DNA of 62,664 nt, counting the filler. It is 6 parts of 6 records of this genome, joined end to end, with 100 filler letters (N's around TTAATTAATTAA, not from the genome) between each part and the next. Parts side by side here need not be neighbours in the genome. Positions count along the whole stretch, not along the records: positions 1 to 30,680 come from DRR723986_15255; 5 more parts are not named here. One strand, given 5' to 3'. Below the pieces are notes generated by a model. That model was not told the DNA's origin. It saw only the letters and a program-made list of their open reading frames with translations, and ran no database searches. Below are positions 1 to 56,771 of the stretch, piece after piece; the stretch's first letter is position 1; the number at the start of each line of letters is the position of its first letter. A program made the translations under genes and the position numbers.

Positions 1-119
1 CGCTTCCAGTTCGGATTTAGCGTTTCTGCGCCTATTCGAGTCGGCTATTCATTGGGTGTGGCACGCTATACGTCCGTGCGATTCGCACAGCAAATGCCCT
101 CTAAGGCGCAAGCGAACAT

Positions 120-15016: not shown

Positions 15017-16414
15017 ATGAAGTTACCGCTACGTCCGCTTCTCATTCTGCTAACCCTACATGCACTGTACCCTGCCGCCACTCCAGCAGAGCAAGATTCT
15101 GCACCCCAAAAACCGAAATCGGAACTCAACTGGCACTCATCGCTCGAGAAGGCGATGGAAGAGAGCCAGCGAAGCGGCAAACCCATCTTGATGGAAATCC
15201 ACGGCCGACCATGGTGCCCGCCGTGCGTTGCGCAGGGCGAAAAGATCATGCAACAGCCAGAGTTCGCTGACTGGGCAAAGAACAATGTCGTGCTTCTTGA
15301 GATTCGAGTCGGAGAGGGCTACAGCAAAGAGAAGGGCAGTCCCATTTGGGCTGAGCAGTTTCGCAAACACAAGCTTCCCGGAATTCCGGCCGCCGTAATG
15401 CTAACATCCGAGGGCGAACGAATCGGAACGATTTACCCAAAGCCAGACATACACCAATGGATCGGTGCCGCGAGCAACCTACTGACCTCGAACGCCTTGT
15501 CAAAGCAATCGACAGCACCTGATACTAAATCGCTTCCCTTTCGAATTACCGAATCGAACAATATCTCTGTTCCGGCAACTCTGAATGGACGAATCGGTCT
15601 GAACCTAATGTTCCACACTGCTGTCGACTCGGTCTCGCTAACCAAAGAAACCGTTGAACGCTTTCCCGAGATCAAGCTGACTCAATCGGTAGAAACTGAG
15701 ACATGGAGCGGCAGCTCGGACACGCGTTTCGGCAAGGCAACTCTCGCCCTTGGCGGACTTTTGGACCGCCAGGTCACCGTCTTCGAAAGCTTAAAGTCTG
15801 GGCAAGGAACTGACGGCAAGTTTGGCCCCGAACAACTTCATGCTAAGGCATTTGCAATTGATTTCACCAGCTCGGAAATCAAGTTGCTTCCTGAGATTCC
15901 GCAACAGGTCGCCGCGCCGGATTCGGAATGGCAAAGCTTTGATGGACTGGTAGATTCAGAATTGCTGTTCGTGGAGGCAAACCTTTCCAACGGCAAGCTG
16001 GCCAGCACCAAAGAACAAGGCAGCGCGGACGAGGCGGCTAGCGGCTCAGAATACACGGAAACCGTCCGTTTCCTGCTACATTCTGGCTACAGCGGTTTTG
16101 GACTGCTCGACACAGCGCAGGTTGCGAAAAGCGATTTCTTGCAGAACCTACACGTTGAGAAAGAAAACGAGCTTTCCGATTCATCGGGGAGAAAAGTGTC
16201 GACCAAGCTTGTACGCGTCCCGCGATTCCAGTTCTCTGATTCAGAACTCGCAGATGTTCCGATGTCGTACTTCGACGGATCACTAGGACAACAACGGTTC
16301 AGCTTGCTCGGCTGCGACTTTCTCAGGCGGTACGACTGGGTATTCGACCTATCGAACGACCGCGTCTATTTTCGCGCCAACAAGGCACTCAAGACCAACT
16401 ATTTCATCAAGTAG
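15017..16414 (+). CDS. Thioredoxin-like domain fused to tandem retropepsin-like aspartyl-protease domains
   Basis: Signal peptide; WCPPC; LMFHTAV and FLLHSGY at the DTG/DSG positions; LLGCDFLRRYDWVFD retropepsin-type end. Confidence 0.7.
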   Translation: MKLPLRPLLILLTLHALYPAATPAEQDSAPQKPKSELNWHSSLEKAMEESQRSGKPILMEIHGRPWCPPCVAQGEKIMQQPEFADWAKNNVVLLEIRVGEGYSKEKGSPIWAEQFRKHKLPGIPAAVMLTSEGERIGTIYPKPDIHQWIGAASNLLTSNALSKQSTAPDTKSLPFRITESNNISVPATLNGRIGLNLMFHTAVDSVSLTKETVERFPEIKLTQSVETETWSGSSDTRFGKATLALGGLLDRQVTVFESLKSGQGTDGKFGPEQLHAKAFAIDFTSSEIKLLPEIPQQVAAPDSEWQSFDGLVDSELLFVEANLSNGKLASTKEQGSADEAASGSEYTETVRFLLHSGYSGFGLLDTAQVAKSDFLQNLHVEKENELSDSSGRKVSTKLVRVPRFQFSDSELADVPMSYFDGSLGQQRFSLLGCDFLRRYDWVFDLSNDRVYFRANKALKTNYFIK

Positions 16415-16490
16415 TCGCACTCGGTCGTATAGAAACCGAGCTTACTCCCCGCCCGCGTTTTGTGCGGACGGTGGAGAAACCTCGTCTAGC

Positions 16491-17231
16491 TTATTGCTTT
16501 CGCGATCGGCGAATCGCAAAGCACGCAGTAGCGAGACCAAGCAACATTGCGCTACCTGGCTCCGGTACAGCCGATAGACCCCGCGACTCAATGAAGTGCT
16601 CTACGCCAGCTTCGAATTGCGCTTCTTCCAAACCACGGTTCAAGACGATACCGAAAGATTCCGAATTGGCGATTCCAGCTCCACTGGAATTGAGCTCTAG
16701 GACGAAACCATACGCTCCGACTGGCGCTGAATCACTGAGCACCCACTCCACGTGCTGGTGGATGTCGCCCCTTCCACCGCTTCCTGCGATCTCGCCCGTT
16801 GCACGATCAATAATGTTGCGGAACGCACCATCGACAAACGATGCTTCAGCGTGAGTCGCACCGGCTTGGGTGAGGATATTGTTTGGCGAAGCGGTGGCGT
16901 GCTCGAAGGTAATGCTTGCGTCGGTCGTCGCCTCTGCAGCGCCATTCCAATAGTACAAGCTACCGAGGATATCGTAGCCCATGTAATCAAGTGCATTGAT
17001 CCCCAGACCGTCCGAAACTTCCGAAATGAAGCCAGGGTCGTCTGTTCCAAAGGTCCCAGCAACATCAGCAAAGCTACCTTCAAAAATGCGACCCTCGCTA
17101 CCGAATTCGACATCAACCATCGAATCAACGTAGCTGAATTCGATATCAGAGTGACCGTGCTGAGCTAGGGAACTACGAGCCCCCAAGCAGCTCAAGGCCG
17201 CGATCGCGAACACAAAAACAAAACGTTTCAT
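16491..17231 (-). CDS. PEP-CTERM surface protein with His motifs (putative metal-binding)
   Basis: Signal peptide; mature N-terminus QHGHSD; DDPGF; GDIHQH; C-terminal VPEPGSAMLLGLATACFAIRRSRKQ. Confidence 0.85.
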   Translation of the reverse strand: MKRFVFVFAIAALSCLGARSSLAQHGHSDIEFSYVDSMVDVEFGSEGRIFEGSFADVAGTFGTDDPGFISEVSDGLGINALDYMGYDILGSLYYWNGAAEATTDASITFEHATASPNNILTQAGATHAEASFVDGAFRNIIDRATGEIAGSGGRGDIHQHVEWVLSDSAPVGAYGFVLELNSSGAGIANSESFGIVLNRGLEEAQFEAGVEHFIESRGLSAVPEPGSAMLLGLATACFAIRRSRKQ

Positions 17232-17291
17232 TTGTAACTCCAGTTGAAAAACAAAAAGTGATTTGATGCCGCCCCCAAACAGCAGCGGATT

Positions 17292-17876
17292 CTAATGATC
17301 ATGATCGGGCAGGATTGGTCGCCCCACTGGCGTCAACGACTTGGGTGGAGGATCCCCTTTGGCGAGAGCTCTAATCGCGGCTGCAACATACTGCTCACGG
17401 ACGTTCCCTGGGTCAAAAGTGCTATCGTCCATCGGACCAGAGAAACGGAGCTCACCATCACGATCAAATACAAAAAAGCTGGGCGTATGTGATGCTGACA
17501 ATCGCGATGCAATTACCTGCTCACAGTCGTCAAGTACGGGAAACGTAAACTTCGCCTCGCGATTGAACTCTTCTAACCCTCCATGCGAAACCATCACGGC
17601 TGCGAAGGCCGAAGACTTCGACGAACTCGCCAAACGTTTGAGACGCGTTAAAACTCCAGCGGTTGCCTGGCAGTCGGCAGACAACACGCATACGACGCTT
17701 GAATCAGCACCAGAGCTAAGCGCTTCGCCCAACTCGGCATTCAACTCGATCAGTTCGGACAGGGCAGGCGCCGGCTGGTCGCTCTCAACTGAGAACATTG
17801 AATTTGCCTCGCTCGCCGGTCTCGAACAGGCAGCCAGCCCCGTGAGGGAGATCATGAAAACAAGACGAAACATCAC
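17292..17876 (-). CDS. Redoxin (AhpC/TSA-like) domain lipoprotein
   Basis: Lipobox LAAC; FTFPVLDD...A-HTPSFFVFDRDGELRFSGPMDD; ends PDHDH; start overlaps the DUF1559 stop codon. Confidence 0.75.
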   Translation of the reverse strand: MMFRLVFMISLTGLAACSRPASEANSMFSVESDQPAPALSELIELNAELGEALSSGADSSVVCVLSADCQATAGVLTRLKRLASSSKSSAFAAVMVSHGGLEEFNREAKFTFPVLDDCEQVIASRLSASHTPSFFVFDRDGELRFSGPMDDSTFDPGNVREQYVAAAIRALAKGDPPPKSLTPVGRPILPDHDH

Positions 17877-18967
17877 TGCGGCAACTCCACAACTTCACCA
17901 TCGTTGCGTGATCCGAGAAGCCACCATACTTCTGCATCGATTCCCTGGCTGATGAAATGCACACTGCCGTCGCCGAGGGCCGCATTCACGCCCCCGGTGT
18001 GATTGCTACTTGGCGTAATAATGTTGTCGCCAGTGCCTTCGCCACCGTGGTAATGGCAATTCCACTTGTTTGGCGAATACACATGCATGTACGTCGGCGC
18101 GGTCAAGGTCCACCCACTAATCCAAGAACGTCCCTGAAAGGCCGAATGGAAAGTATCATGGTGTGCCAACTCGCAATTCCGCTGTATCTCGCTTTGCACA
18201 CGTGCCCGCTCAGTTGTGTGACGGGAAACCATTCGCTGATCCGCGTTGCGAATCTCGCGAGACGATTGCGCCTGCATTATCAAACGCTCTGAAATTGCGA
18301 CGGTGTTGGTAAGCCCATCGGTTACGTCCGCCATACGAACTTTGCGAACATGCCAGGGTACCTGCTCGGCTGGAGAATTCATTGCCATTAGGCCATTGTG
18401 AGTTGCATTGGGTGCGGAGCGTTCGCCGCGCACACCAAGCGACCACGAAGGCCAACCCGCATTGGCCGCGTAGCTATCGGATGCGGGATTAGCCGACCCC
18501 ATGACAATTTGATTTTGGTGGTTCGCAGGATCCGAGGGACAAAGAAAAGCCGGAATGACGGCGCGAGACGCAGCGGCATTCACGTGCGATTCACTAATCG
18601 TTGCACCGTAGATATTGTTACACTGTCCCGAGTCAGCCATTTCGACGCGGAAATCGATACTGTTGTACAGATTGCCTTGTTCAATCTGCGGCAGAATGTA
18701 GGCCATCCAGCTATAGAACCCAGACGTACATCCCGCACCTGAACGCGTGCCGCCGCCGGTCATGGTCATCGGGAATGTTTTGTGAATATCGTGGTAGTTG
18801 TGAAAAGCCAGGCCTAGCTGCTTCAAATTGTTCGAACACTGCATCCGCCGAGCCGCTTCTCTGGCAGCTTGTACTGCGGGCAATAGCAGTCCCACCAGAA
18901 TGCCGATGATGGCAATAACCACGAGCAACTCCACCAGCGTGAAGGCTCTTCGCGTTTGTGAATTCAT
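17873..18967 (-). CDS. DUF1559 prepilin-type N-terminal cleavage/methylation protein (copy 1)
   Basis: [60 protein letters not shown]9-DG end (HTGGVNAALGDG). Confidence 0.95.
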   Translation of the reverse strand: MNSQTRRAFTLVELLVVIAIIGILVGLLLPAVQAAREAARRMQCSNNLKQLGLAFHNYHDIHKTFPMTMTGGGTRSGAGCTSGFYSWMAYILPQIEQGNLYNSIDFRVEMADSGQCNNIYGATISESHVNAAASRAVIPAFLCPSDPANHQNQIVMGSANPASDSYAANAGWPSWSLGVRGERSAPNATHNGLMAMNSPAEQVPWHVRKVRMADVTDGLTNTVAISERLIMQAQSSREIRNADQRMVSRHTTERARVQSEIQRNCELAHHDTFHSAFQGRSWISGWTLTAPTYMHVYSPNKWNCHYHGGEGTGDNIITPSSNHTGGVNAALGDGSVHFISQGIDAEVWWLLGSRNDGEVVELPQ

Positions 18968-19319
18968 AAAAGCAATCCTCGCCAACAATAATTTGAATCG
19001 TCTGCGATCATGGTGACGTCAGATGATTCGGTGACCAATTCGCCGAAGCCAGGAGAATGGCTGCGGCGGACAAATCACCGATTCAATTTCGTTAAGGTGC
19101 TCCACCGCGAGCAGCCAAGTGGCCAGGGTTTGGTCGGACCGTTGACCTGAATGACCGAAACACGGTGGAACATATGGAAGAGGCGCATCGTTCTAAATCG
19201 ATGCATCTCTAAGCACTTTGGTCAATCCGCAAATCTTCATTGACTCACCGAGCGCACAACGTTGCGCCGGAGAGAAAGAGATGCGACGATTCGGCTAAGA
19301 GACCGAATCCAAGTGGGAA

Positions 19320-19739
19320 CTAAGCCGGCGGCCCTCGAGAGACAGCAACTGGCAAGTCTCCAGCGGTCGCACGTGCTAGTGGCTGGGCCGCACGATGTGC
19401 AGGCGGGCTGCCACAGCAGTTGAGGACCGGGAAAACCACGTCAGAAGAGTAGACGACATACAGTGCCTGACACACAACGCAGTGATCTTCATCATGCGAC
19501 GGGTGCTCGCCCTGCTTGGAATTGTCGGCGTCCGCCAAAGAAACCGACACGGGCCGGCAGCCCGAGTGGCTGCATCCACAAGGAGATGGGCCGAGGCGTT
19601 CCGGAGCATCCGCATGCTCGTACGTACGTGCCGCCGCGCCATGACAAGTTATGCCATGATGATGGATCGCGACCAGATTGCTCAATGCAACCTGCCCACA
19701 GATCAAAAGCGTTAAGAGGGTACGGACCGAGGGCGCCAT
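19320..19739 (-). CDS. His/Cys-rich small protein with CxxC and C-terminal RGPP (DUF2946/CruR-like candidate leader peptide, copy 1)
   Basis: Hydrophobic N-terminus, HHH, CGCSHSGC, HDEDHCVVC, ends VSRGPPA*. Confidence 0.8.
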   Translation of the reverse strand: MAPSVRTLLTLLICGQVALSNLVAIHHHGITCHGAAARTYEHADAPERLGPSPCGCSHSGCRPVSVSLADADNSKQGEHPSHDEDHCVVCQALYVVYSSDVVFPVLNCCGSPPAHRAAQPLARATAGDLPVAVSRGPPA

Positions 19740-20122
19740 TTGGGCTCAACAGTGGAACTTACTGGGTTTTGCAACGGTCCGACCAAGACTTGCGTTGTTC
19801 ACTGTGACTCGTCACCCTGCATTTGTCAAGTCCGACGAGATCTGTCGCAGATGCTATTCAGTAGCCCGCTTCGAAGTAGATGGGGGTTGCGAATACACTC
19901 CTCGAAATCCACGTCCCTTTGGAACTCGCAACCTCCTCCACCAGCCTCGATTTATAGCAGAACCCAGTAAATCCTCTCGTGACATATGATCTGGCGAAAC
20001 ATCCCAGCACTTTGAACGTAGGAAACGAAGCCTGTCACGAATGCGTGAACTATAGTTGACTGCGGGAAATTGCTCCGTCGACCCATGGCAAGCCTATTCC
20101 TCACTCGAGGTGCCTCTTCTCC

Positions 20123-20830
20123 ATGCACAACCATGCTCACGAACTGACCCTCGGTCTAGCCTTTTTCCTAGGCGCAGTTCACGCTCTCGAGCCAGGACAT
20201 GGCAAAACGGCAATGCTCGTTTATCTTTCCGGAGAGCGGAAGGGGTTTTGGCACCCCTTCGTCATGGGGATTTCCAGCGGCATCGCTCACTCAGTTTCCC
20301 TGATTGCGATCGCCATCGTTGTCCACCTGACGCAGCATGCTGTCACGGGAGATCACCACCACGAAGACGCTCGCGTCGTTTCGGCGATGCAGTGGATCAG
20401 CGGTTTGCTTGTATTGGCGATCGGTTGCTGGATGCTGGTGGGAGCAATTCGATCCAAACCGTCGCAATGTAGCTGCAAGAACCATCGTGGCGATGCTGAT
20501 TGCGAGCCAAAGCCACTTGGCAAACGTCGCAGCTACTCGATGAGCGCACTGCTGGGAGTCGCCTTCGGGCTTCTGCCGTGCCCCTCGGCCCTGGCGGCTT
20601 ACTTCACAAGCATGTCGACAGGCGCGCCGGTTGCAGCTTACGCAGTGATTGGGCTCTTTGCTGCTGGAATTGCCAGTTCACTCACTTCAGTAGGCTTACT
20701 GGTCCAACGTTTCGGCGATCGACTGTACAACCGCGAAAGCCGCCTAGCACGTCTGCCTTGGCCGCACATTCGAGCCATCCTGATCCTTTGCGTGGGCGCT
20801 CTCTACACGTATCGAGCTGCTATGGCTTAG
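20123..20830 (+). CDS. RcnA-like nickel/cobalt transporter (NiCoT-related)
   Basis: HALEPGHGKT, HS motif, GDHHHED loop, GLLPCPSAL; about 6 TM helices; N-terminal MHNHAH. Confidence 0.85.
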   Translation: MHNHAHELTLGLAFFLGAVHALEPGHGKTAMLVYLSGERKGFWHPFVMGISSGIAHSVSLIAIAIVVHLTQHAVTGDHHHEDARVVSAMQWISGLLVLAIGCWMLVGAIRSKPSQCSCKNHRGDADCEPKPLGKRRSYSMSALLGVAFGLLPCPSALAAYFTSMSTGAPVAAYAVIGLFAAGIASSLTSVGLLVQRFGDRLYNRESRLARLPWPHIRAILILCVGALYTYRAAMA

Positions 20831-22067
20831 GCGTGGGCTCTGACTGGCGAGGCATCGGAAAGATGATTTCGGCTCGTCGGAATGTCTCCGGGTCCAGCTT
20901 CTTGAATTCTGCCAACGCCTCCTTGGCGGGCGCGAGCGGACACCGACGCAAATAGTTGATTATCGGAAGCCGCATATACTGCTGATGCGGTTCGATATTG
21001 CGAAATCGTTTCGACAACTTTGAAACATAACGCCAGTCTTCCAGCCGCGCGAGGTCAGGGATCACGACATCTGCGAAGGCCGAGTCATCCAGCAAGACTG
21101 CCAGCGATGCACAGATATCCTTCTTATCGAGCACAGAGAACTCTTGGGTGTGAGCTCGAAGCGCGGAGACGGTCGAGAATCGCGCTGAGACTTCTGAATT
21201 TTTGTTGCCAAGTATTTTGTCCGTCACGTCCCGCAATGCATCCTTGCCGCCGAGCAGCAGATAGCACGAGATCGCGGCATCGAGCCCCAATTCATCCCGC
21301 TCGATCCCTGGAGTGGCTTTGCCTTGGGGGTTGAACACCATGCGTTTGACGAAATCAAGATCTTCCCTGCTGCCAGCAAGCCCTAAGACAGTCCAGTAGA
21401 ATCGCCGGAAGCTAAGTGATGTTTCCGCGTCGGCCAAACGCTTCTTAACTTCGCCCAGATCAACACCCTTAACCCAGGGCTGCAACTGTTCAACGGAAAC
21501 GGTTGCGAAAGCGTTGTAGGCATCTCGCTGCACCCAAGAATCACTCGATGCAAGCCCGCGCCAATACAGATCCAGCCATTGGTGCTCCGTGTCTCCACCC
21601 TCAGCGGCCCGACCAGCAAGCTTCTGCTGCAGGTCAACAACCGACTGAATGTACTCAAGCGCAGTCTTAGCGAGAGGTTCCGAAGGCGCCCAGTCAACCC
21701 CTTCGCTATCTCCAATCCCGAACATGAGCACCTTGTTGCCGTTGGCGAACTCCTTGTCTGAGTAGGCGCTCACCAGACTCCCCGGCGCAAAAACTGGCTT
21801 ACCCGAGAGCAACTTCGATTTGAATACTGTCTCGACTTCAAATGTGTGAATCGAAAACTCGGCGTCTTCCGCCGCAACCTGCTTGCAGTTTGCCAAAGCG
21901 ACGAAGTCTAGCTGTGAAAGTTCTTCGCGCAGGCTACTGGCAAGGGCAGTACAAAAAGGGCAAGCAACTACGCGAGCGGCTGAGAATGCAATGCAAATCC
22001 AAACCGCCATCGTGAATTGTAAGACACGGCATGAAACACGAAGTTTCGTTGGTTGCTGCACAGACAT
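20820..22067 (-). CDS. Secreted hypothetical protein with CPFC at the predicted mature N-terminus and a helical C-terminal region
   Basis: Signal peptide ending VVA-CPFC; long open frame; overlaps the 3' end of the convergent transporter gene by 11 nt. Confidence 0.7.
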   Translation of the reverse strand: MSVQQPTKLRVSCRVLQFTMAVWICIAFSAARVVACPFCTALASSLREELSQLDFVALANCKQVAAEDAEFSIHTFEVETVFKSKLLSGKPVFAPGSLVSAYSDKEFANGNKVLMFGIGDSEGVDWAPSEPLAKTALEYIQSVVDLQQKLAGRAAEGGDTEHQWLDLYWRGLASSDSWVQRDAYNAFATVSVEQLQPWVKGVDLGEVKKRLADAETSLSFRRFYWTVLGLAGSREDLDFVKRMVFNPQGKATPGIERDELGLDAAISCYLLLGGKDALRDVTDKILGNKNSEVSARFSTVSALRAHTQEFSVLDKKDICASLAVLLDDSAFADVVIPDLARLEDWRYVSKLSKRFRNIEPHQQYMRLPIINYLRRCPLAPAKEALAEFKKLDPETFRRAEIIFPMPRQSEPTPKP

Positions 22068-22193
22068 AGTGTTACCGCCAATGTGTTCGCTACCGAACGG
22101 AGTTAGCCAATCGACAACGCCAGACTGTAGTCGATGAGCTCATTTATTCTGGACTCACAAAACTGCGCTGCGAAATTTGCCGCGAAATCTTGC

Positions 22194-22670
22194 TCACGAC
22201 TTCCGCCTGCCGGCGGTCACCACACCTGAGCGACCTTGGATTTCAGCAACGATCAACAGACCGCAGCCTACCATGGGAAGCGCATGACAGAGAACACTGG
22301 ATAGCACCGGAGGAGCAGAAGATGGATACCCAGCGATGTAAGCAACCAGCTCGTCGCAACAACCCTCCGACGGTTGAACACCGGGCAAAAGAAGCACCAA
22401 CGCAAGTATGGTCACACTATAGCTGTGCTTCCAGCCAGAAACCACAGTTCTACAGAATATCCCGATGGTGCCCAAGAGAACCAGGGCCACAATAGCGAAT
22501 TGGTTCAGGGTTTGAAAACGAAGCACCGACTCTGCCAAAGCCATCGAATCCAATGCCAGCAACAGCACGACGCTTGAGTAACCCAGCACTCCACCAGCGA
22601 TCCACGGCAGAAACTCATCTGTCAAAAAGCCCGTCTTAACGGGCGTCCTTCGACGCACTGGTGAAGCCAT
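22194..22670 (-). CDS. Hypothetical membrane protein
   Basis: ATG 22670 lies 2 nt after the upstream stop; about 4 hydrophobic segments; GCCD and LCH motifs. Confidence 0.55.
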   Translation of the reverse strand: MASPVRRRTPVKTGFLTDEFLPWIAGGVLGYSSVVLLLALDSMALAESVLRFQTLNQFAIVALVLLGTIGIFCRTVVSGWKHSYSVTILALVLLLPGVQPSEGCCDELVAYIAGYPSSAPPVLSSVLCHALPMVGCGLLIVAEIQGRSGVVTAGRRKS

Positions 22671-22672
22671 CG

Positions 22673-24562
22673 CTACACAACTCCCAGGGCGGAATAGATG
22701 TAGCTGGTGAACAACTGGTAGGAATCTCTCCAAAAGACCAACACTAGGATCGTGCTGGTAAAGATCCACAGAGTTGCTGGCCATGACCTTGCGGCACCAA
22801 AACCCACTCGACCCGGCAGACCGCCGACGAGTGGTATTTGGCAAATGATCGACACCACTGCCGCCACAGCCAGTACAAGCAAGACCGTTTCATAACCGCA
22901 GGCTACGCCGACGAGAGCAAGGCTGAACGCCACGTTGGCTCGGTCATTCGGTTCGCGTGCAGCCCCTCCATATAGCTCGTTGGCAGGAGCACCTTCAACG
23001 GACACGTCACTCTGCTCACCTTCACACTCATCCGCACCGAGAGAACCCGCGCCGCTCGCGACTCCACCAGATTCACTTCCATGCGTCACCTGATCCCTCG
23101 CCTCATCTTGCTCGGTGTTGCCCGCTACCGCCTCTAACTTTGCAGCCGCACTGGCCGATACATCGACAAGATCGCCTGACGCGGCCGTGGAACTCGTTGA
23201 TCGAGGCGACAAAAACCAAAGCACTGGAGACGCTGCCAGGCCGACTAAGCCACCGAGCAAAGTAACAACGAGACTAGCTGGAATTGACGACGAGCCCCAA
23301 TCCTTCCAAGCGGGTGTGATCGGATTTAGGTGCCCAAACAGACTCACGAGGATCGCGGCAAGACCAATCGCGCACAGTCCACTTCGAAGCGGAACGCGAA
23401 ACTGATCGTAGTTGATCATCCCCCAGGCCAGCAGGGTTACCAGGACGATCATGTGGAAGAAATACAAACTGAGCAGATCCCACTTCGTATACAACAGGAT
23501 CCACACGATCCCGCTGTAAGTGTTCTCGGTCCGCACTGGCAAATTGGCTCCACCGGAGAGCAACTCGCGGAAATAGAAGATCACGAACACCAGGCCGACA
23601 ACGGCCTCGATGATTGGGTAGCGAGCTGAAATAGGAACACTACAGTTCCGGCATTTGCCACCCAGGCGAAGCCACGCCAGCACCGGAATGTTATCGATGC
23701 CAGAGATTTCTTCTTGACAGTTTGGGCAAGCCGACGAGGGCAGGAACAACGGGCGCCTGCGCGGCAGACGGAATATCACAACATTGAGAAAACTACCAAT
23801 GCTGGCTCCTGCGGCCAGGAAGATCAGCATCACTGCAACGGACACAGCGTGTAGACGAACCGATTCGGCAATTGTCATATCGGTCAGTCGCTTGATGCTG
23901 GCGGTCGACGGCCAAATCAAGTCTTGGATCATGGACACCGTAGGAACGGCAACCAGGTAGATAAACGCTGCGGATGCTAAGACGATCGCGACAGCATATC
24001 GTGACCAAAACGGTCGCGTTAAAGCCTCCTGCGGAAGGCCCTCTACCTGGTCCTCCGGTGCAATTACACTCTCACCTTGCACATCCATCTCATCTAGCCC
24101 TCCCGAACCGGAGGCTTCTGTGGTTGCTACTGCATTGCGGCGGTTGTGCACGCTCGCCGCCATTAACACAAAACTGAAACTGATCAGCGCATACAGAGCG
24201 AACAGGTGAGCCTGACAGTGCTCCCAAGTGAACAGACCTGCTGTGGAAACCACGATAACCACGGCCGTCATCGCTACGGAGCTCCATCGCTGGTTCGTCG
24301 CGGCCACGACCGCCAAAGCGAGAACGAAGCAAAGTCCGCAGATCAAGGCGGCGACTGCCCAGTGAGTAGGCTCGGTCGACAACTGACAGGTAAGCTGATG
24401 AAGGAGGACCGCAGCGGCCCCACAAGCAATGGAAGGCCACGCAGCTAAGCACGTATAGGTCAACCAAAGACTTGCAGTCCCACTGTTGCGACTCGGTGTA
24501 TGGTCAGCGGGAAGCTGGCTTCCGGTCTCAGCCCAATACGAAGTTGTAGATGTAGATTGCAT
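22673..24562 (-). CDS. A24 prepilin-peptidase-like membrane protein with an N-terminal multi-TM extension; catalytic motifs degenerate
   Basis: IGSFLNVVIFRLP...SACPNC...DNIPVLAWLRLGGKCRNC.VPISARYP (A24 N-terminal 4-Cys domain); start placed at ATG 24562 after AGGA. Confidence 0.8.
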   Translation of the reverse strand: MQSTSTTSYWAETGSQLPADHTPSRNSGTASLWLTYTCLAAWPSIACGAAAVLLHQLTCQLSTEPTHWAVAALICGLCFVLALAVVAATNQRWSSVAMTAVVIVVSTAGLFTWEHCQAHLFALYALISFSFVLMAASVHNRRNAVATTEASGSGGLDEMDVQGESVIAPEDQVEGLPQEALTRPFWSRYAVAIVLASAAFIYLVAVPTVSMIQDLIWPSTASIKRLTDMTIAESVRLHAVSVAVMLIFLAAGASIGSFLNVVIFRLPRRRPLFLPSSACPNCQEEISGIDNIPVLAWLRLGGKCRNCSVPISARYPIIEAVVGLVFVIFYFRELLSGGANLPVRTENTYSGIVWILLYTKWDLLSLYFFHMIVLVTLLAWGMINYDQFRVPLRSGLCAIGLAAILVSLFGHLNPITPAWKDWGSSSIPASLVVTLLGGLVGLAASPVLWFLSPRSTSSTAASGDLVDVSASAAAKLEAVAGNTEQDEARDQVTHGSESGGVASGAGSLGADECEGEQSDVSVEGAPANELYGGAAREPNDRANVAFSLALVGVACGYETVLLVLAVAAVVSIICQIPLVGGLPGRVGFGAARSWPATLWIFTSTILVLVFWRDSYQLFTSYIYSALGVV

Positions 24563-24697
24563 ACTGACACTTTTCCTGAAACGAGACCGCGCCACAGCAG
24601 CTTCGACTGTGGCACGGGGCGTCCGCCATTGGTCACATTGACCTAGCCCAACTAGCGCAACTCATCGTTACATCAAACTGGGCAAACATACCGGGCT

Positions 24698-26026
24698 CTA
24701 GCCACCAACGCTAATCAAACGCGTTGGCGTTCCACCAACCTTGAGAGTCGCTTGGACACTCCAGTCTCGAACCGAGATAACGGCGATCGTACCGTCGCCA
24801 GGATTCGAGACCAGCAAGAACCTGCTGCCAATTGCAGAAACACCGTGATGCCCACTGTGTCCCTGAATCTGACTCCGACCAACGCCGAGCGTCTTTATCG
24901 GGCTGGCATCAGACAAGTCTCCATCACGATTCGGATCGAGCTCAACAACGTGCATCTTCTCACCGTCGGCCTCGGCGTTCTCTTCGAATATGACCGCGTA
25001 CATCCTGCCCGCCCGAGTCTTCATGACCGTCGGCGTCAAAGCTGAGTTGCCTTCGCCGATCCCGAGAACCAGCTTTTGGCACGATGGTTTGGGACTCGAG
25101 GCGTCAATCATACAAAGCTCCGCGTCGGTGCCTCGTCCAGCAATGAACAGCACGTACTTCCCAAGGTTGGCAAATGCGCCGGTTCGCTTTGCTGTTCCAC
25201 TTGCATCCTGGCCGAGATCAATGTGGTGGACTTCTTGATCTTGCGAAGGAGCCGCTGTGCTCACCCAGCAAACACCTTCTGAAGGAGCAAAGAATGCTTT
25301 GCCGCTGTTGTACGTCGCCCCGTGAATTCCTCCTGAGGGAAGGAAAAACGAGCGCTCCACGTCGGATCCAGAATCTAGTCCGACGACATCAACCCGCCCC
25401 TTGTTTTCACCATCTCGATCGATCCAGGTCGAGTATCCCACTTTGTTCTTGCTGACGGCCAACGTAATGTGCCCACCGCCGGCTGAGAAGAACTGGTCAG
25501 GCTTGGAGCCCTTCCTAATGGCACTAGGTTGCACTCGAGTGAAGCCGTTTTTCTTGTCGTTAGCTAAGTACCAGCTATCGCCGTAGTGATACACGTGAGC
25601 GGGATTGCCTTGCTTGTCGTCTAACGTGACAAGCTTGACCGATGGTGCATCATCCAGATGCCAATGAAAGTGGTCCCCGTGAGACTCCTTCGTCGCACCG
25701 CTGTTAATGGCTACCCATCCACTTTGGAAGTTGCCGTCGTCATCGTCGCGTACGCCCAGCAGCACGAGCTCATCAATCGCCTTCATCTGGACAAGCATAT
25801 GACGCTCGGGATCAACTTCCGGATGCCCAGCCAATTCCTGCTTCTCGAGCGAATACTTGTCGCCCCTTTTTAAGTCGCCCCAATGGACCGTCTGCGTCTG
25901 GGTATCCTGCCAAAAAACCCTGGCGATCGTGCGCGGTTTCTTACCACTGGATGCTTCTTGCGCAGTGCCGACCGTGCTTCCGCAGGCAACGGCTGCACAG
26001 AGCGCTAATAGAACTTTTGATTTCAT
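24698..26026 (-). CDS. Secreted beta-propeller with clustered His motifs (AztD-like metal chaperone candidate)
   Basis: Signal peptide; ESHGDHFHWH, GNPAHVY, GGGHITLA, GIHGA, GHSGHHG; ends VGGTPTRL. Confidence 0.65.
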   Translation of the reverse strand: MKSKVLLALCAAVACGSTVGTAQEASSGKKPRTIARVFWQDTQTQTVHWGDLKRGDKYSLEKQELAGHPEVDPERHMLVQMKAIDELVLLGVRDDDDGNFQSGWVAINSGATKESHGDHFHWHLDDAPSVKLVTLDDKQGNPAHVYHYGDSWYLANDKKNGFTRVQPSAIRKGSKPDQFFSAGGGHITLAVSKNKVGYSTWIDRDGENKGRVDVVGLDSGSDVERSFFLPSGGIHGATYNSGKAFFAPSEGVCWVSTAAPSQDQEVHHIDLGQDASGTAKRTGAFANLGKYVLFIAGRGTDAELCMIDASSPKPSCQKLVLGIGEGNSALTPTVMKTRAGRMYAVIFEENAEADGEKMHVVELDPNRDGDLSDASPIKTLGVGRSQIQGHSGHHGVSAIGSRFLLVSNPGDGTIAVISVRDWSVQATLKVGGTPTRLISVGG

Positions 26027-26092
26027 ATCCGAATTGCTTTCTGTATTGAATTGAATGTCTTCTCGCTTGTTTCACCGAGAGTCGCGGCTGCG

Positions 26093-27745
26093 CTAGTTAT
26101 CTCGAATGCAGTACAAACGAGTTCCAGTGCGAACAACAATGCTGTCGCCCGACGCGATGGCCCCATAGACGATCGGGTCTCGAGCACTACTACGCGAGCT
26201 GGCTCGGCGGGCGGCAAAGCTCTCAGCCATCGCCTTTAGCTCAGCGGCATCAAGCGCTCCATCGCCGTTGGTGTCGATTCGCGGCAGCATCCTTTTGAAG
26301 TCTTCCGGCACTTCGTCGGCTGACAAGTTGCCATCACCGTTCTTGTCACCACGCATCATGGCGGCCATCATCCCACCACCAGGACGTCGCGTAGCACCTG
26401 AGCCAGAGTCAGATGAGCCCGGTTTGCCTGAGTCGGATGCACCATGCTTAGCGCCTTCAGATTGCCCGTGCTTAGCACCCTCAGATTGACCGTGAGATGA
26501 TTGGCCAGCGGCAGAGTGGCTAGTGGAAGAATGACCGTGCCCGTGCCCTCCGCCGGAGTTCTCAACGTAAGTCTCGGGCTTAGGAGGATTCTCGCTGTCC
26601 CACAACTGATTTGTTGCAATCAACGAGTACTCTTTACCGGCGGCGATCACTTGAGCGGTACCGTTCTTCGCGAAGACGTACAGTCGCCCTTGAGCAGCAA
26701 TTGGTGTCGCCCAGGACTCTCCCGACAGGCGCTTTCGATAACACGTCTCGCCAGTCTCGCCATCGACACAGGTCAGCACGCCGACTTTGTTGATGAAGTA
26801 AACATGACGACCAATTGCGACTGGACTTGCGTAGTCACTGATTGCTCGGTCAGCCCGCCACGCCACTGCCGGTGCACCGGATTCCATACTTGCTAGATCG
26901 ACGCAGCAGTTGGATCGAACCGACCCCTCTTTGGCGAACTCTGGCAATCGCGCTCCGATATAGATGTGGTCGCCAACGGGAGTCGGCGAAGGCACTGAGT
27001 TGCCGTCCAGCCCATCGACAGTCCAGAGTGCTTCACCGTTGCTGGCAGCGTAGGCCGTCAAGCTGCCGGCAGAACTAACAAGAACCTGAGACTTCCCATC
27101 GTGCTCCATAACGACCGGCGACGACCAACTCGAACCAGAAGGCCTCTCAGTTTTCCAATCAATCGCACCGGATTCTTTGTTTACGGCAACTAGATAGCTC
27201 GGTCCCTTGTGCTCAAGATTGAGGAAAAGGTGCGAGTCGTTTTGAGCGGGCGAACTTCCCAGTCCATGGTTGTTCTCGAACTTTCCAAGTTCATCGCTCA
27301 AGTTCCGCTTCCACAACTGCTCGCCAGCGTTACTGACGGCAACAATGTCACCGCTTTCGAAGAACGCGTAGACGCCGCGCTGGTCGGCAACAGGTGTCGG
27401 AGCGGCTCGCGATGCCATGTAGTTCGAAGCCGCTTTGGCCGATGCCTCCACCTCCTGCCGCCAAATCTCCGAACCGTCCTCCAGCGACAGACAAACTATC
27501 GCCAGGGTATCTTTCATCGGCCCAACAACGGCCGTCACGTAGACCTGCCCACCGACGATAACAGGCGTCGACTGACCGTAACCCGGCAGCTCCAACTGCC
27601 ACGCGATGCCGTTACCGGGTTCCCATTGACTCGGTAGCGGGCAGTCGGCTGCGCTGCTACCTCCATTTCGGAAGCTCGTCCAATCCCCCAGCGCGGTCAT
27701 CGGAGACAGCGCTAAGGCGACGAGTGCGATTGTTCTAGTTTTCAT
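26093..27745 (-). CDS. PQQ-binding-like beta-propeller with an inserted His-rich linker and EF-hand pair
   Basis: GDWTSFRNGG, GYGQSTPV, GSSWSSPV, YASPV; insert GHGHGH...DKNGDGNLSADE...DTNGDGALDAAE; ends RTGTRLYCI. Start reassigned to ATG 27745. Confidence 0.85.
   Translation of the reverse strand: MKTRTIALVALALSPMTALGDWTSFRNGGSSAADCPLPSQWEPGNGIAWQLELPGYGQSTPVIVGGQVYVTAVVGPMKDTLAIVCLSLEDGSEIWRQEVEASAKAASNYMASRAAPTPVADQRGVYAFFESGDIVAVSNAGEQLWKRNLSDELGKFENNHGLGSSPAQNDSHLFLNLEHKGPSYLVAVNKESGAIDWKTERPSGSSWSSPVVMEHDGKSQVLVSSAGSLTAYAASNGEALWTVDGLDGNSVPSPTPVGDHIYIGARLPEFAKEGSVRSNCCVDLASMESGAPAVAWRADRAISDYASPVAIGRHVYFINKVGVLTCVDGETGETCYRKRLSGESWATPIAAQGRLYVFAKNGTAQVIAAGKEYSLIATNQLWDSENPPKPETYVENSGGGHGHGHSSTSHSAAGQSSHGQSEGAKHGQSEGAKHGASDSGKPGSSDSGSGATRRPGGGMMAAMMRGDKNGDGNLSADEVPEDFKRMLPRIDTNGDGALDAAELKAMAESFAARRASSRSSARDPIVYGAIASGDSIVVRTGTRLYCIRDN
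26423..26494 (-). repeat. In-frame 24-bp tandem repeat (HGQSEGAK x2 + HGASDSGK)
   Basis: CTTAGCGCCTTCAGATTGCCCGTG (26447-26470) and CTTAGCACCCTCAGATTGACCGTG (26471-26494), plus a diverged copy at 26423-26446. Confidence 0.8.
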
Positions 27746-27786
27746 TCTCTTTATTTCTACTGTATGCAGTGTGTTGTTTTGAACGC

Positions 27787-27856
27787 GCACGGCGCGGCGA
27801 GGCGCCGTGTGAACGCAAAGGCCACCTAAGCCGCTCTTGGGCGAGATGGCCTTTGC
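27787..27856. other. Two adjacent intergenic stem-loops inside the operon
   Basis: GCACGGCGC/GCGCCGTGT (27787-27810) and GCAAAGGCCA/TGGCCTTTGC (27815-27856). Confidence 0.55.
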
Positions 27857-27871
27857 TTTGTCTTTGCGACG

Positions 27872-28291
27872 CTAGAGCCGGCGAACAGCCTTCTTGGGTA
27901 GCTCGATCAGGATCTTTTGCTCACTTGTCGGCCAGCTTAGGGCCAGCGGCGATTTCTCTGGGTCGGACCAAGGAGCTGCCAGACGCCAATCCCCGAGTGA
28001 CTCCACCACGACGCGATACTCAGTCACTTCAGAGCTAGGCACGTTTCCGTCGACAGCCATCATCCCCGCTACTCCAGCGGGGCCGGTAATACCCGTCATA
28101 ACAGGATCCGTTGTGTCCAAAGGAGCGAGCACTACCTGCACGTCAGGTACTGGATGCCCGTCAATCTGCACTTCGACATCGAAGTATGTTTCTTGAACAC
28201 CTCCTGCACCCGAGCAACCGGCGATACAGACAGCAAACAATCCAACTGGGAGAATCAGCGAGAATGCAGCCCGCTGCTTAGAGTTCATCAT
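27872..28291 (-). CDS. Small lipoprotein (carboxypeptidase-regulatory-like fold) of the type that follows DUF1559 genes
   Basis: Lipobox [36 protein letters not shown]; start overlaps the end of the DUF1559 gene. Confidence 0.7.
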
Positions 28292-29321
28292 GGCTGAACG
28301 TCTCCCCACCATTTCGAGAATGCACTGCCCAGTGAACTTGCTGGCTTACGCTGCTGCTAATGAAACGAACACTGCCGTCACCCAGTGCAATGTTTGCACC
28401 ACCGGTGTGCAGGCTGCGGGGTGCGAACCAGCCACGGCCGTGGACGGTAACGTCCGGAATGCGATTGTTGGGTGTCAGGTATCCGTTGGTGACGACCGCG
28501 TAGGGAACACCACGAATCCAAGTTTCACCACGGGTGCCGCGATAGCTACTGATCTCCGATGGAACAACCGCATTCAGGTCGGGATTGCGAATCGTCGCTC
28601 CTCCGATGCTGAAGCCCGGTTGGCCTGGAGGATTGCCGCTTGAACCCGACCACGATGCCAAACGGCGATGAATCAAGTTGCCGACAGGTGGATCAGTGCT
28701 GCGAATTCCGTCGCCGATGAGTGCCTCCGAAAGCATGACCGTATTGGAAGTCCCATCGGTGATGTCACCGAAGCGAGCCCACGAGTTCGTCCAAACAAAT
28801 CCATCTGTTGGGAAGCGGTCATCGTAGTTGGTATCGGTGCCCGAGCCGTAGGAGAACATATAGTTCAACCCTGCGACAGTCACCTCATTTCCAGCCGCGT
28901 CGGTCACCACGCGTGTAGGTTCGGCCGAATCACTAGGGCAAAGGAAGGTCGAGACAACGGTCTGGGCCGCTGGCACGAACAACGGATTGAGGGAAGCTCG
29001 CCAGGGCGGTCCGACATAGAGCGGCTGACTGTAATCAATCAAATTCTCTAAGTTGCCTTGCTCGATGAAAGGCAAGATTCGAGCCTGCGGAGAGAAGGAA
29101 CTCGAACCGGTCAGCCCCGGGAATCGCTTGTATGCAGATTCGTAGTTGTGAGTAGCCAGCGCGAGCTGCTTTAGGTTGTTGGAACACTGCATTCTCCGAG
29201 CGGCTTCGCGTGCCGCCTGAACAGCGGGCAGCAACAGCCCAACAAGAATGCCGATGATGGCGATAACAACTAGTAGCTCCACCAGCGTAAAGCCGTCACG
29301 TTTAAGGGAATGATTTTTCAT
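28278..29321 (-). CDS. DUF1559 prepilin-type N-terminal cleavage/methylation protein (copy 2)
   Basis: [70 protein letters not shown]. Confidence 0.95.
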
Positions 29322-29550
29322 GATTTGTATGACTTATGAATATTGTGTTTTAGGTTTTCTTGGCCCAATAACTCTGGGCCACCAGGAACGTTCAGCGAAG
29401 GGTAATGCCGACCACGTGGGGCGCACGTTGGGTCTTTTGCGGGCACAGCTTCTGCGGAAGCCGCGTCTCTGCGCTGCCACGAAAGCAGATTTTCTCCGAC
29501 CAGACAGAGCGCAATGCTTCTAGCTGTTCAGCGAATCACTACGCAGCGAG

Positions 29551-29611
29551 ATTCGTGCGCAGTAACATTCGTTGCGCAATGACACTCGTTGCGCGATAAC
29601 ACTCGTTGCGC
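29551..29611. repeat. 17-bp tandem repeat, 3 copies plus a partial copy
   Basis: AGTAACATTCGTTGCGC, AATGACACTCGTTGCGC, GATAACACTCGTTGCGC at 29561-29611, preceded by ATTCGTGCGC. Confidence 0.85.
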
Positions 29612-29704
29612 ACATTGGCTCCACTGCATGGAATGGATTCAATGCAACCGTCCGAATCGGAGATAGCAATCAGCGCGTAGCGGAACGCGATAAAGAAACG
29701 TCGT

Positions 29705-30151
29705 CTAGGCAGCGGGGGGACCGCGAGCCTGCTGACAAAGAACGACCTGTGGAACAAGAACATCCACATACGCAGCAAGCGCGACGACCAGCCGGGCATG
29801 CGAAACGCGGGATGAAGCAAGCCCGCGCGATTGAGCCGCGGCATAGAAGTCGCAGATGGAGCACGGCCCGTGATAGTCGGCCGCGGTTATGCCAGATCTG
29901 AAATCGTGAGCAGCCGTCGCACCTTGATGGTGATCGACGTCGGATTTGACAAACGGTGAATTAGTGTGTTCAGAGCGATGCGCATGGCAATCACACTGCT
30001 CGTGCGACGACGGTGCCTGCAGATCGCAAGCAGCATCAGCGCAGCACGCTGCATGTTCATCATGATGGTGATGATGCCAATGAGGCCCAATGGCGACTGG
30101 GATTCCGTAGAACACCAGCAGGGCTATAGAGACTGAACGAGTGTTGAACAC
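29705..30151 (-). CDS. His/Cys-rich small protein with CxxC and C-terminal RGPP (DUF2946/CruR-like candidate leader peptide, copy 2)
   Basis: Hydrophobic N-terminus, HWHHHHHDEH, CC, CDCHAH, HGPCSIC, ends QARGPPAA*. Confidence 0.82.
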   Translation of the reverse strand: MFNTRSVSIALLVFYGIPVAIGPHWHHHHHDEHAACCADAACDLQAPSSHEQCDCHAHRSEHTNSPFVKSDVDHHQGATAAHDFRSGITAADYHGPCSICDFYAAAQSRGLASSRVSHARLVVALAAYVDVLVPQVVLCQQARGPPAA

Positions 30152-30564
30152 CGTTGCTGAGAACTCCGCACATGAAAGATCGTTGTTGAGATCACGGGTG
30201 CGGTCCGACCACTTGTGACTCTACGCACTCCCAAAGGCATCGTCAAGGATGTACTTCTCGAATCTTCTCGATCCGCTCTTCTTTTGTTCTCGGCCAGCTC
30301 CCCGCGATCCAGCAGAGCGCGCACTTCAAACGGCCAGCACCGATGCAACGCCAAGCTCTAACCTGCAACCGCTCCCGCGGCTTGAGAGACGAAGAACTTT
30401 CGGTGCTACCGCCCAACCCGCAGCCACTCAAGCAGATCACGGGGCCTTTCAATCACCGTAGGCGGAGCCTTTGTGTCCTCGGATGCCCAGGCAGCCGAAC
30501 CCTGCACGGCTCTGCGAACCCTGGTTCTGTTGAGTGCGTCTGGCGCAGGCCCGCCGGGCTACTT

Positions 30565-30606
30565 ACTAGCGCAGATTCACTAGCGCAGATTCACTAGCGC
30601 AGATTC
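30565..30606. repeat. Perfect 14-bp tandem repeat x3 (ACTAGCGCAGATTC)
   Basis: Read directly from the sequence. Confidence 0.95.
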
Positions 30607-30680
30607 AATCGTTGACTTGACCTGCTGATTGAACCGGGGCAACTCAGTTCCTCACCTTGAGTCGCCTTCTTCGTAGTGGA

Positions 30681-30780
30681 NNNNNNNNNNNNNNNNNNNN
30701 NNNNNNNNNNNNNNNNNNNNNNNNTTAATTAATTAANNNNNNNNNNNNNNNNNNNNNNNNNNNNNNNNNNNNNNNNNNNN
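30681..30780. other. Artificial contig linker (N44-TTAATTAATTAA-N44)
   Basis: N runs around a cassette with stops in all six frames; gene content and GC change across it. Confidence 0.98.
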
Positions 30781-36478: not shown

Positions 36479-36578
36479 NNNNNNNNNNNNNNNNNNNNNN
36501 NNNNNNNNNNNNNNNNNNNNNNTTAATTAATTAANNNNNNNNNNNNNNNNNNNNNNNNNNNNNNNNNNNNNNNNNNNN
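36479..36578. other. Artificial contig linker
   Basis: N44-TTAATTAATTAA-N44. Confidence 0.98.
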
Positions 36579-44167: not shown

Positions 44168-44267
44168 NNNNNNNNNNNNNNNNNNNNNNNNNNNNNNNNN
44201 NNNNNNNNNNNTTAATTAATTAANNNNNNNNNNNNNNNNNNNNNNNNNNNNNNNNNNNNNNNNNNNN
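44168..44267. other. Artificial contig linker
   Basis: N44-TTAATTAATTAA-N44. Confidence 0.98.
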
Positions 44268-51339: not shown

Positions 51340-51439
51340 NNNNNNNNNNNNNNNNNNNNNNNNNNNNNNNNNNNNNNNNNNNNTTAATTAATTAANNNNN
51401 NNNNNNNNNNNNNNNNNNNNNNNNNNNNNNNNNNNNNNN
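51340..51439. other. Artificial contig linker
   Basis: N44-TTAATTAATTAA-N44. Confidence 0.98.
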
Positions 51440-56671: not shown

Positions 56672-56771
56672 NNNNNNNNNNNNNNNNNNNNNNNNNNNNN
56701 NNNNNNNNNNNNNNNTTAATTAATTAANNNNNNNNNNNNNNNNNNNNNNNNNNNNNNNNNNNNNNNNNNNN
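56672..56771. other. Artificial contig linker
   Basis: N44-TTAATTAATTAA-N44. Confidence 0.98.

Follow-up and report, generated by a model that had tools for sequence, protein, structure and literature searches.

A candidate CruR-type arrest peptide with a fixed CxxC-RGPP spacer ahead of a DUF1559, AztD-like and prepilin-peptidase operon of a planctomycete

The locus described here raises the question of whether a short His-rich ORF ahead of a pilin-like operon makes a protein that works after its release, or a leader peptide whose translation decides whether the operon behind it is expressed. The window, that is, the whole stretch of DNA analysed (62,664 nt), consists of several joined contigs, with N-run joins at 30681-30780, 36479-36578, 44168-44267, 51340-51439 and 56672-56771; the first of these is an AT-rich linker between two N runs, and the DNA to the right of 30680 is perhaps from another organism. 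The ORF, hereafter called leader 2, is real; it has homologues, occupies 29705..30151 on the minus strand, begins with GTG and encodes 148 aa, and we regard it as a CruR/DUF2946-like arrest-peptide candidate. We found its organisation to be as the initial annotation had described it. Residues 6-22 are hydrophobic (Kyte-Doolittle mean 2.05 in a 17-residue window), as would befit an N-terminal export signal or membrane segment, and this putative export/anchor segment together with a conserved WHxH (H26, H28) spans 30062..30136 (minus strand). There follow, in order, HHHHH at residues 26-30, CDCH, CSIC at 97-100 (C97, C100; 29852..29863, minus strand), which is the invariant CxxC of the family, exactly 42 residues, RGPP at 143-146 (29714..29725, minus strand), an arrest motif of the class described in PMC12992588, two residues and the stop; His accounts for 16 of the residues and Cys for 8. 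In the 30.7-kb contig the pattern CxxC-38..48-R[AG]PP-stop was found twice, whereas 100 simulated sequences gave it 0.02 times on average and never twice. An AlphaFold model of leader 2 was of low confidence (pTM 0.31) and uninformative, also on a His2Cys2 site. Short tandem repeats, both intergenic, flank leader 2 at 29556-29612 (period 17) and 30565-30607 (period 14).

Protein searches with leader 2 gave 54 homologue matches, of which one, a 2120-aa repeat protein, was left out. R[AG]PP was present in 51 of the remaining 53 (RGPP in 49, RAPP in 2) and missing from two, and the CxxC lay exactly 42 residues ahead of the motif in all 51 that carry it, in a set gathered by similarity to the query and hence biased toward equal length. 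Among 78 distinct, more distant leaders taken from genome loci, the spacer was 42 (40 leaders), 43 (20), 44 (11), 45 (1) or 46 (6) residues. An alignment of 48 leaders left G16, G22, W25, H26, H28, C97, C100, G144 and P145 invariant, with C97 and C100 kept in 48/48, and the linker between WHxH and CxxC ranged from 48 to 94 residues (47 of the 48 rows). Mean pairwise identity inside the 42-residue spacer was 19%, yet its length was constant, which indicates that length and not sequence is kept. The reading of a cis-acting arrest-peptide leader under the length constraint proposed in the initial annotation has good support from conservation (51 of 53 homologues), from the leader's constant place as first gene and from CruR, for which this rule on spacing had already been published and tested (PMC9426467). 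The poly-His, as judged from the alignment, is incidental to the family: the longest His run varied from 1 to 5 and reached five in only 4 of the 48 leaders, so that it was dropped as a conserved tuning element. Named relatives of leader 2 belong to Pirellulaceae, and the leader profile matched 45 of 201 sampled Pirellulaceae genomes; a metagenome scan yielded one short contig.

A second leader of this kind, leader 1, lies at 19320..19739 (minus strand), with CVVC, RGPP and its own 5' motif at 19776-19784. The two leaders had been described as divergent in sequence and identical in organisation. Both have CxxC and RGPP, and they are weakly homologous (36 identities in a global alignment, equalled by 16 of 500 shuffles; profile match probability 87.5). 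In its details the comparison was partly wrong: the spacer of leader 1 is 44 rather than the 42 residues claimed for both, a single residue instead of two separates its RGPP from the stop, and its His run is 3. No support was found for the further suggestion that the leaders, through their different His/Cys content, tune their operons to different metals, since His-run length varies freely among close homologues heading the same genes, the two leaders carry the same 5' motif, and both operon types contain genes of a metal-scavenging type.

Leader 2 is the first gene of its operon, with its own promoter-like site and a gap of 383 nt to the next gene, and the same layout was seen in homologous loci. 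The gap is a structured intergenic region (29322..29704; fold z -3.35), behind which lie, all on the minus strand, a DUF1559 pilin-like gene as the first target (28278..29321; N-methyl motif, H-X9-DG C-terminus), a gene for a probable lipoprotein of 146 aa that has no family match and is syntenic in homologous loci (27872..28312), a PQQ-like beta-propeller with a His-rich insert and EF hands (26093..27790), an AztD-like beta-propeller of 442 residues with the zinc metallochaperone fold (24698..26026; Foldseek and a weak NCBIfam match) and a membrane protein with a prepilin peptidase A24 N-terminal domain (22673..24595). At all 20 loci selected by protein similarity, the leader was on the same strand as, and ahead of, the downstream gene, and it headed either the same target genes in varying order or a DUF58/transglutaminase/MoxR/permease cluster. 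The leader is re-used as a module before a DUF1559, propeller or AztD-like gene or the DUF58 cluster, and L013 and L017 each hold two leaders inside one cluster. The conserved cluster of DUF58, transglutaminase, MoxR ATPase and ArsP-like permease was observed under the leader family in L001, L002, L007 and L011. A leader/hairpin subfamily (L083, L145, L157, L159, L160, L161 and L164) heads Flp-type pilin-like genes and a peptidase instead of DUF1559; the Flp-type label was given from sequence, outside any family scan.

The leader class itself is known, and the core of the present finding, leader architecture and fixed spacing, is already published for CruR/DUF2946 (Roy et al. 2022); what is added here is the zinc-type context and the 5'-end/loop element. 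CruR (Bp2923) of Bordetella pertussis, a DUF2946 (PF11162) protein, has an export signal and a CxxC 45 residues before RAPP, a spacing that was reported to be constant within 1-2 residues in over 2000 DUF2946 proteins; five residues added to the spacer abolished regulation, and control works through a long intergenic region, where termination depends on Rho (Roy et al. 2022, PMC9426467). A few DUF2946 homologues were noted there in Planctomycetes, and arrest by CruR was later demonstrated in vitro (Fujiwara et al. 2025, PMC12992588). Leader 2 resembles CruR in being the operon's first gene, in its putative export signal, in the fixed distance, here 42 residues, from CxxC to a motif like RAPP at the C-terminus, and in the long intergenic region. 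It differs in its spacer (42 vs 45 ± 1-2), its RGPP, its invariant WHxH and its targets, which are DUF1559, AztD-like and prepilin-peptidase genes whereas CruR controls a TonB receptor for copper; the conserved 5' motif and loop hairpin of its family, moreover, were not found in the text on CruR (PMC9426467). Judged by its architecture, leader 2 is CruR-like, whereas it gave no match to Pfam or NCBIfam and stayed below the PF11162 gathering cut-off. Leader 1 reached E 0.24 against PF11162, and 3 of 48 family members touched DUF2946 weakly (best E 0.12). One wider-family leader (G162) passed the DUF2946 cut-off (29.2 bits vs 23.7), and 11 of 30 atlas neighbours were clusters with some DUF2946 members (17% in one shown). 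That leader belongs to a locus (L145, G162:C1:528832-529991) where two leaders stand back to back around a short region.

The catalogue of Fujiwara et al. also bears on this family. In its Fig. 4B source data, DUF1559 is an enriched class, among the top 30 downstream (112 RAPP vs 68 AAPP), and the rows include His-rich CxxC leaders before DUF1559, two of them annotated DUF2946 (PMC12992588). These small upstream RAPP/RGPP ORFs are like the present leaders in both respects; the report is, however, a catalogue, with DUF1559 absent from the main text and no metal assignment or RNA elements found for the class (PMC12992588). Its RGPP list (Fig. 4A) may include the leader 2 family.

Taken as a whole, leader 2 is probably a CruR-type regulatory upstream ORF. 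The ribosome very probably halts at RGPP, and the fixed spacer of the stalled peptide would then hold the CxxC immediately beyond the tunnel exit. There C97/C100 could bind a metal ion, and the invariant H26/H28 would probably take part; a His2Cys2 site made of these four residues is plausible but somewhat doubtful. When metal is scarce, the stall would persist, the intergenic region would be transcribed and the DUF1559/propeller/AztD-like/prepilin-peptidase operon would be on. When metal is bound, folding would free the stall and Rho would terminate transcription in the intergenic region. This direction of control and this role for Rho are reasonably likely; Rho passed the cut-off in 4 of 5 related genomes. 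Several points count against the CruR-type reading, among them the absence of a Pfam or NCBIfam match for leader 2. The spacer of 42 residues is shorter than CruR's 45 ± 1-2, and leader 2 ends with a weak C>G skew that forms no clear bubble (50 C/44 G in the last 150 nt of the leader, 28 C/24 G in the first 100 intergenic nt).

A second layer of control was suggested by the region upstream of the leader. A sigma-70-like promoter (TTGACG, 17 nt, TAGAGT; 30218..30246, minus strand), with the same spacing before homologous leaders, was the only promoter-like match in 29250-30680, where shuffles give 0.6, so that it is weak alone. The conserved motif GGTCGGACCG (30201..30210, minus strand) lies at the predicted transcript start, about +1, as a putative RNA toehold or operator. 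It overlaps a predicted 5'-UTR hairpin (CCGCAC/GUGCGG; 30164..30206, minus strand) over the Shine-Dalgarno-like GGAG of leader 2 (30164-30167). The arms of this hairpin are conserved across leaders and its loop lengths differ; the fold itself was no more stable than shuffles (z 0.18). Throughout the family the order is TTGAC, 17-18 nt, TAnnnT, 7-8 nt, the 5' motif and a hairpin covering the ribosome-binding site. The motif is found at both leaders (9-mer count in the window 6 vs 1.16 expected) and at 17 of 25 leaders from the protein-selected loci and the window. Across 401 family genomes, the promoter-plus-motif pattern gave 18 matches, 16 in this orientation and 2 flipped; an R[AG]PP leader was headed by 13 of the 16, three of them identical to the promoters of L001, L018 and L059, vs 0 of the 2. 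A backwards control of the pattern gave about 20 matches vs 18; the weight of the argument is therefore on the genes behind the matches and not on the count. Promoter patterns lacking the -10 element were too noisy and were abandoned. Rfam covariance models matched neither the 5' motif nor the loop hairpin in window positions 16000-30680, and gave two sub-threshold matches elsewhere in that range (E 2.7 and 4.7). As a side observation, the 5' UTR takes a variant form in L129, L139 and L140, where the arms of the motif pair with the bases that extend as far as the AUG.

The possible partner of the 5' motif was found behind leader 1, where a conserved intergenic hairpin (19099..19175, minus strand; fold z -3.19), the only copy found on the contig, has at its apex CGGUCCGACCA, the reverse complement of the motif. 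In the family, CGGTCCGACCA, likewise the reverse complement, follows many leaders at a distance of 505-862 nt from the 5' motif and at the apex of a long hairpin, and all 12 hairpin folds beat their shuffles (z -1.9 to -5.7). When 14 hairpins were aligned by fitting them to the model, a procedure that leans toward the model, 12 of 20 pairs showed double changes, with 0 of 500 shuffles as high. RNAalifold on a plain alignment of 15 hairpins gave no common long stem; in a 6-sequence subset the stem appeared, with double changes in 4 of 20 pairs. Of the 25 leaders from protein-selected loci and the window, 11 had both elements and 6 the 5' motif without the loop; the loop without the motif was seen in none, and 8 lacked both (p 0.003, with no correction for relatedness). 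For 71 leaders whose context was complete, in part selected by means of the motifs themselves, the corresponding numbers were 24, 15 (including leader 2), 3 and 29. A hairpin-first search of 150 genomes gave 10 new matches, all with the loop: seven stood behind an R[AG]PP leader, five of these with the 5' motif, and three had no leader. Of the hairpins lacking an upstream leader (L158, L162, L166), two precede other genes, one for an Flp-type pilin-like protein and one for a small exported protein rich in His, and the third follows an AztD-like gene. By exact pattern, no hairpin partner was found in G330, G210 and G073, which have the 5' motif and whose completeness is unstated.

In 24 motif/loop pairs, where positions 1-7 match by selection, positions 8 and 9 were each paired in 23 and position 10 in 19; a two-sided change was clear in one case (U-A, in L117), G-U pairs occurred several times, and the 10-bp duplex was calculated at -19.8 kcal/mol. 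Some readings were set aside. Position-10 compensation in L145 as proof of pairing was weakened by close relatives that are mismatched there, and occurrences of the loop 12-mer by itself, away from leaders, seemed to be due to chance. A role of the intergenic hairpin in intrinsic termination was unsupported, with a mean of 4.0 T in the 14 bases after the stem vs 4.1 before it (34 folds, including 4 off-target).

On the RNA reading, the transcript would start with GGUCGGACCG, overlapping the hairpin that would mask the ribosome-binding site of the leader, and pairing of the motif with the loop could open this stem. Pairing of the 5' end of the transcript with the complementary loop of the family's intergenic hairpin is the most likely reading, held by a modest preference. 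Leader 2 has the 5' motif, whereas the family loop hairpin is absent from its intergenic region (29322-29704), which implies either that pairing occurs in trans or that the motif is a DNA operator; a loop partner, such as the intergenic region of leader 1, could act on leader 2 in trans only. Attenuator RNAs that act in trans are known, for example rnTrpL of Sinorhizobium, a leader-derived RNA that pairs with other regulon transcripts; the comparison is one of analogy only, with no sequence or family link. A second RNA layer of this kind was not found described in the titles and abstract openings searched in the open literature.

The strongest alternative leaves the leader working as described and takes GGTC-N-GACC as a DNA operator for a dimeric repressor, the complementarity then being no more than that of a dyad present in two inverted copies; one site would be at +1, and a second, optional one would lie downstream. 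GntR/FadR-like repressors have the operator consensus GGT-N3-ACC, and the 5' motif is an imperfect palindrome at a usual repressor position, becoming TGGTC-N-GACCA in the Flp-pilin subfamily. The motif stands alone in 15 of the 71 leaders, leader 2 among them, and at L028 (G004:C69) promoter, 5' motif and ribosome-binding-site hairpin are placed once directly before a prepilin-peptidase gene with no leader ORF. The position-10 mismatches in 5 of 24 pairs, the leaderless hairpins in 3 of the 10 new matches and one same-sense copy of the 5' core in the leader 2 intergenic region, near 29495-29502, likewise fit an operator. However, orientation is constant, as seen from the 13 of 16 promoter matches in the GGTCG orientation that head a leader, against none of the two flipped; same-sense core copies occur in merely 6 of 71 intergenic regions; and the downstream copy is the apex of a long hairpin with the double changes given above for the model-fitted alignment. 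L063 and L065 have lost the same dyad half in both copies and kept the loop-complementary core, and L117 has its U-A change on both sides. The operator is thus a tentative alternative, and we favour RNA-RNA pairing of the 5' motif with the hairpin loop on the grounds that orientation does not vary, that the downstream copy is apical and that some loci have lost the same dyad half from both copies.

As for the metal, the evidence comes from the neighbouring genes. The nine best Foldseek matches of the AztD-like protein were all AztD (E 6e-16 vs 9e-9 for the next), and its NCBIfam AztD match was below the cut-off (E 5e-5). A ZigA-like GTPase gene, cut off and below the equivalog cut-off (E 1e-129), lies behind the L017 leader, and choice-of-anchor M proteins behind homologues were above the cut-off in 5 of 5 scanned; we take genes of both these kinds to be tied to metal uptake. 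No copper-specific family was found among the scanned downstream genes. The AztD fold and the ZigA-like and choice-of-anchor M neighbours point to a zinc rather than a copper context, and zinc is, on these neighbour genes only, slightly favoured as the metal sensed. Against zinc limitation, a NicO/RcnA-like gene adjoins the operon and has a homologue directly behind the leader in L061, and the permease behind some leaders resembles a Cu/Zn efflux family, below the cut-off; NicO/RcnA-like or ArsP/SO_0444-like permease clusters under some leaders may export metal. The NicO/RcnA-like gene encodes a His-containing membrane protein at 20123-20830 on the plus strand, opposite to and between the two leader operons.

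These genes bear on a less probable alternative, in which periplasmic metal binding during export prolongs the stall, so that the operon is on in metal excess, or in which the metal is copper, nickel or cobalt. CutF of Rhodobacter capsulatus belongs to the same family and is copper-induced, the opposite direction to CruR, and His-rich CutF-like clusters have been linked to nickel and cobalt genes (PMC9973294; bioRxiv 10.1101/2025.02.05.636593). CutF, as described there, shares with leader 2 an exported Cys/His leader, a C-terminal proline motif and action in cis; CutF alone has a stall induced by copper, a stem-loop over the ribosome-binding site of the next gene and a CxxxC sensed in the periplasm. 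The NicO/RcnA-like genes, beside the operon and behind the L061 leader, would suit such control, as would the AhpC/TSA-like gene that follows leader 1, of a class that occurs with CruR homologues (PMC9426467). However, a stalled ribosome could hardly melt the next ribosome-binding site across a gap of 383 nt, the fold prediction leaves the 40 nt ahead of the DUF1559 start unpaired, with no masking stem-loop, and most identified targets resemble uptake or limitation genes. The ribosome exit tunnel holds 30-40 residues, and a spacer of 42 would leave the CxxC near the tunnel exit and not across the membrane. CutF-type logic is accordingly unlikely here. That leader 2 is instead a stable small exported metal-binding protein, with an RGPP of no cis role, is very improbable in spite of its export-type N-terminus and its His and Cys content, given an unconserved middle that is predicted to be disordered, conservation concentrated in RGPP and the length-fixed spacer, and the avoidance of RAPP/RGPP elsewhere in proteomes, Planctomycetota included (PMC12992588).

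If the CruR-type reading with a zinc signal is correct, its consequences reach beyond this operon. According to Roy et al., no riboswitch is known for zinc or copper and upstream ORFs may fill that role (PMC9426467); a zinc-responsive leader would extend this principle of metal sensing by upstream ORFs. The function of DUF1559, a large family in planctomycetes, is unknown, and through the leader one of its branches, which has a prepilin peptidase of its own, is linked to limitation of a metal that is probably zinc. The 5' motif and loop hairpin would give a concrete answer to how a stall acts over several hundred bases. Neither an arrest peptide that senses zinc nor an RNA contact that spans an arrest-peptide gene, at long range or in trans, was found in the searched part of the literature. 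In its broadest and speculative form, the proposal is of a Pirellulaceae zinc-limitation regulon with no recognisable repressor, in which zinc-sensing His2Cys2 arrest peptides would be coupled with an RNA circuit of common 5' ends and hairpin loops that passes the state of one leader to other operons. The loop would lie 500-860 nt downstream or on another transcript, and the regulon would comprise pilin-like and metallochaperone genes. At the end of the leader 1 operon we also observed a PEP-CTERM protein with an N-terminal His motif (16491-17231, minus strand); its look-alikes in L001, L002, L005 and L010 belong to the choice-of-anchor M proteins.
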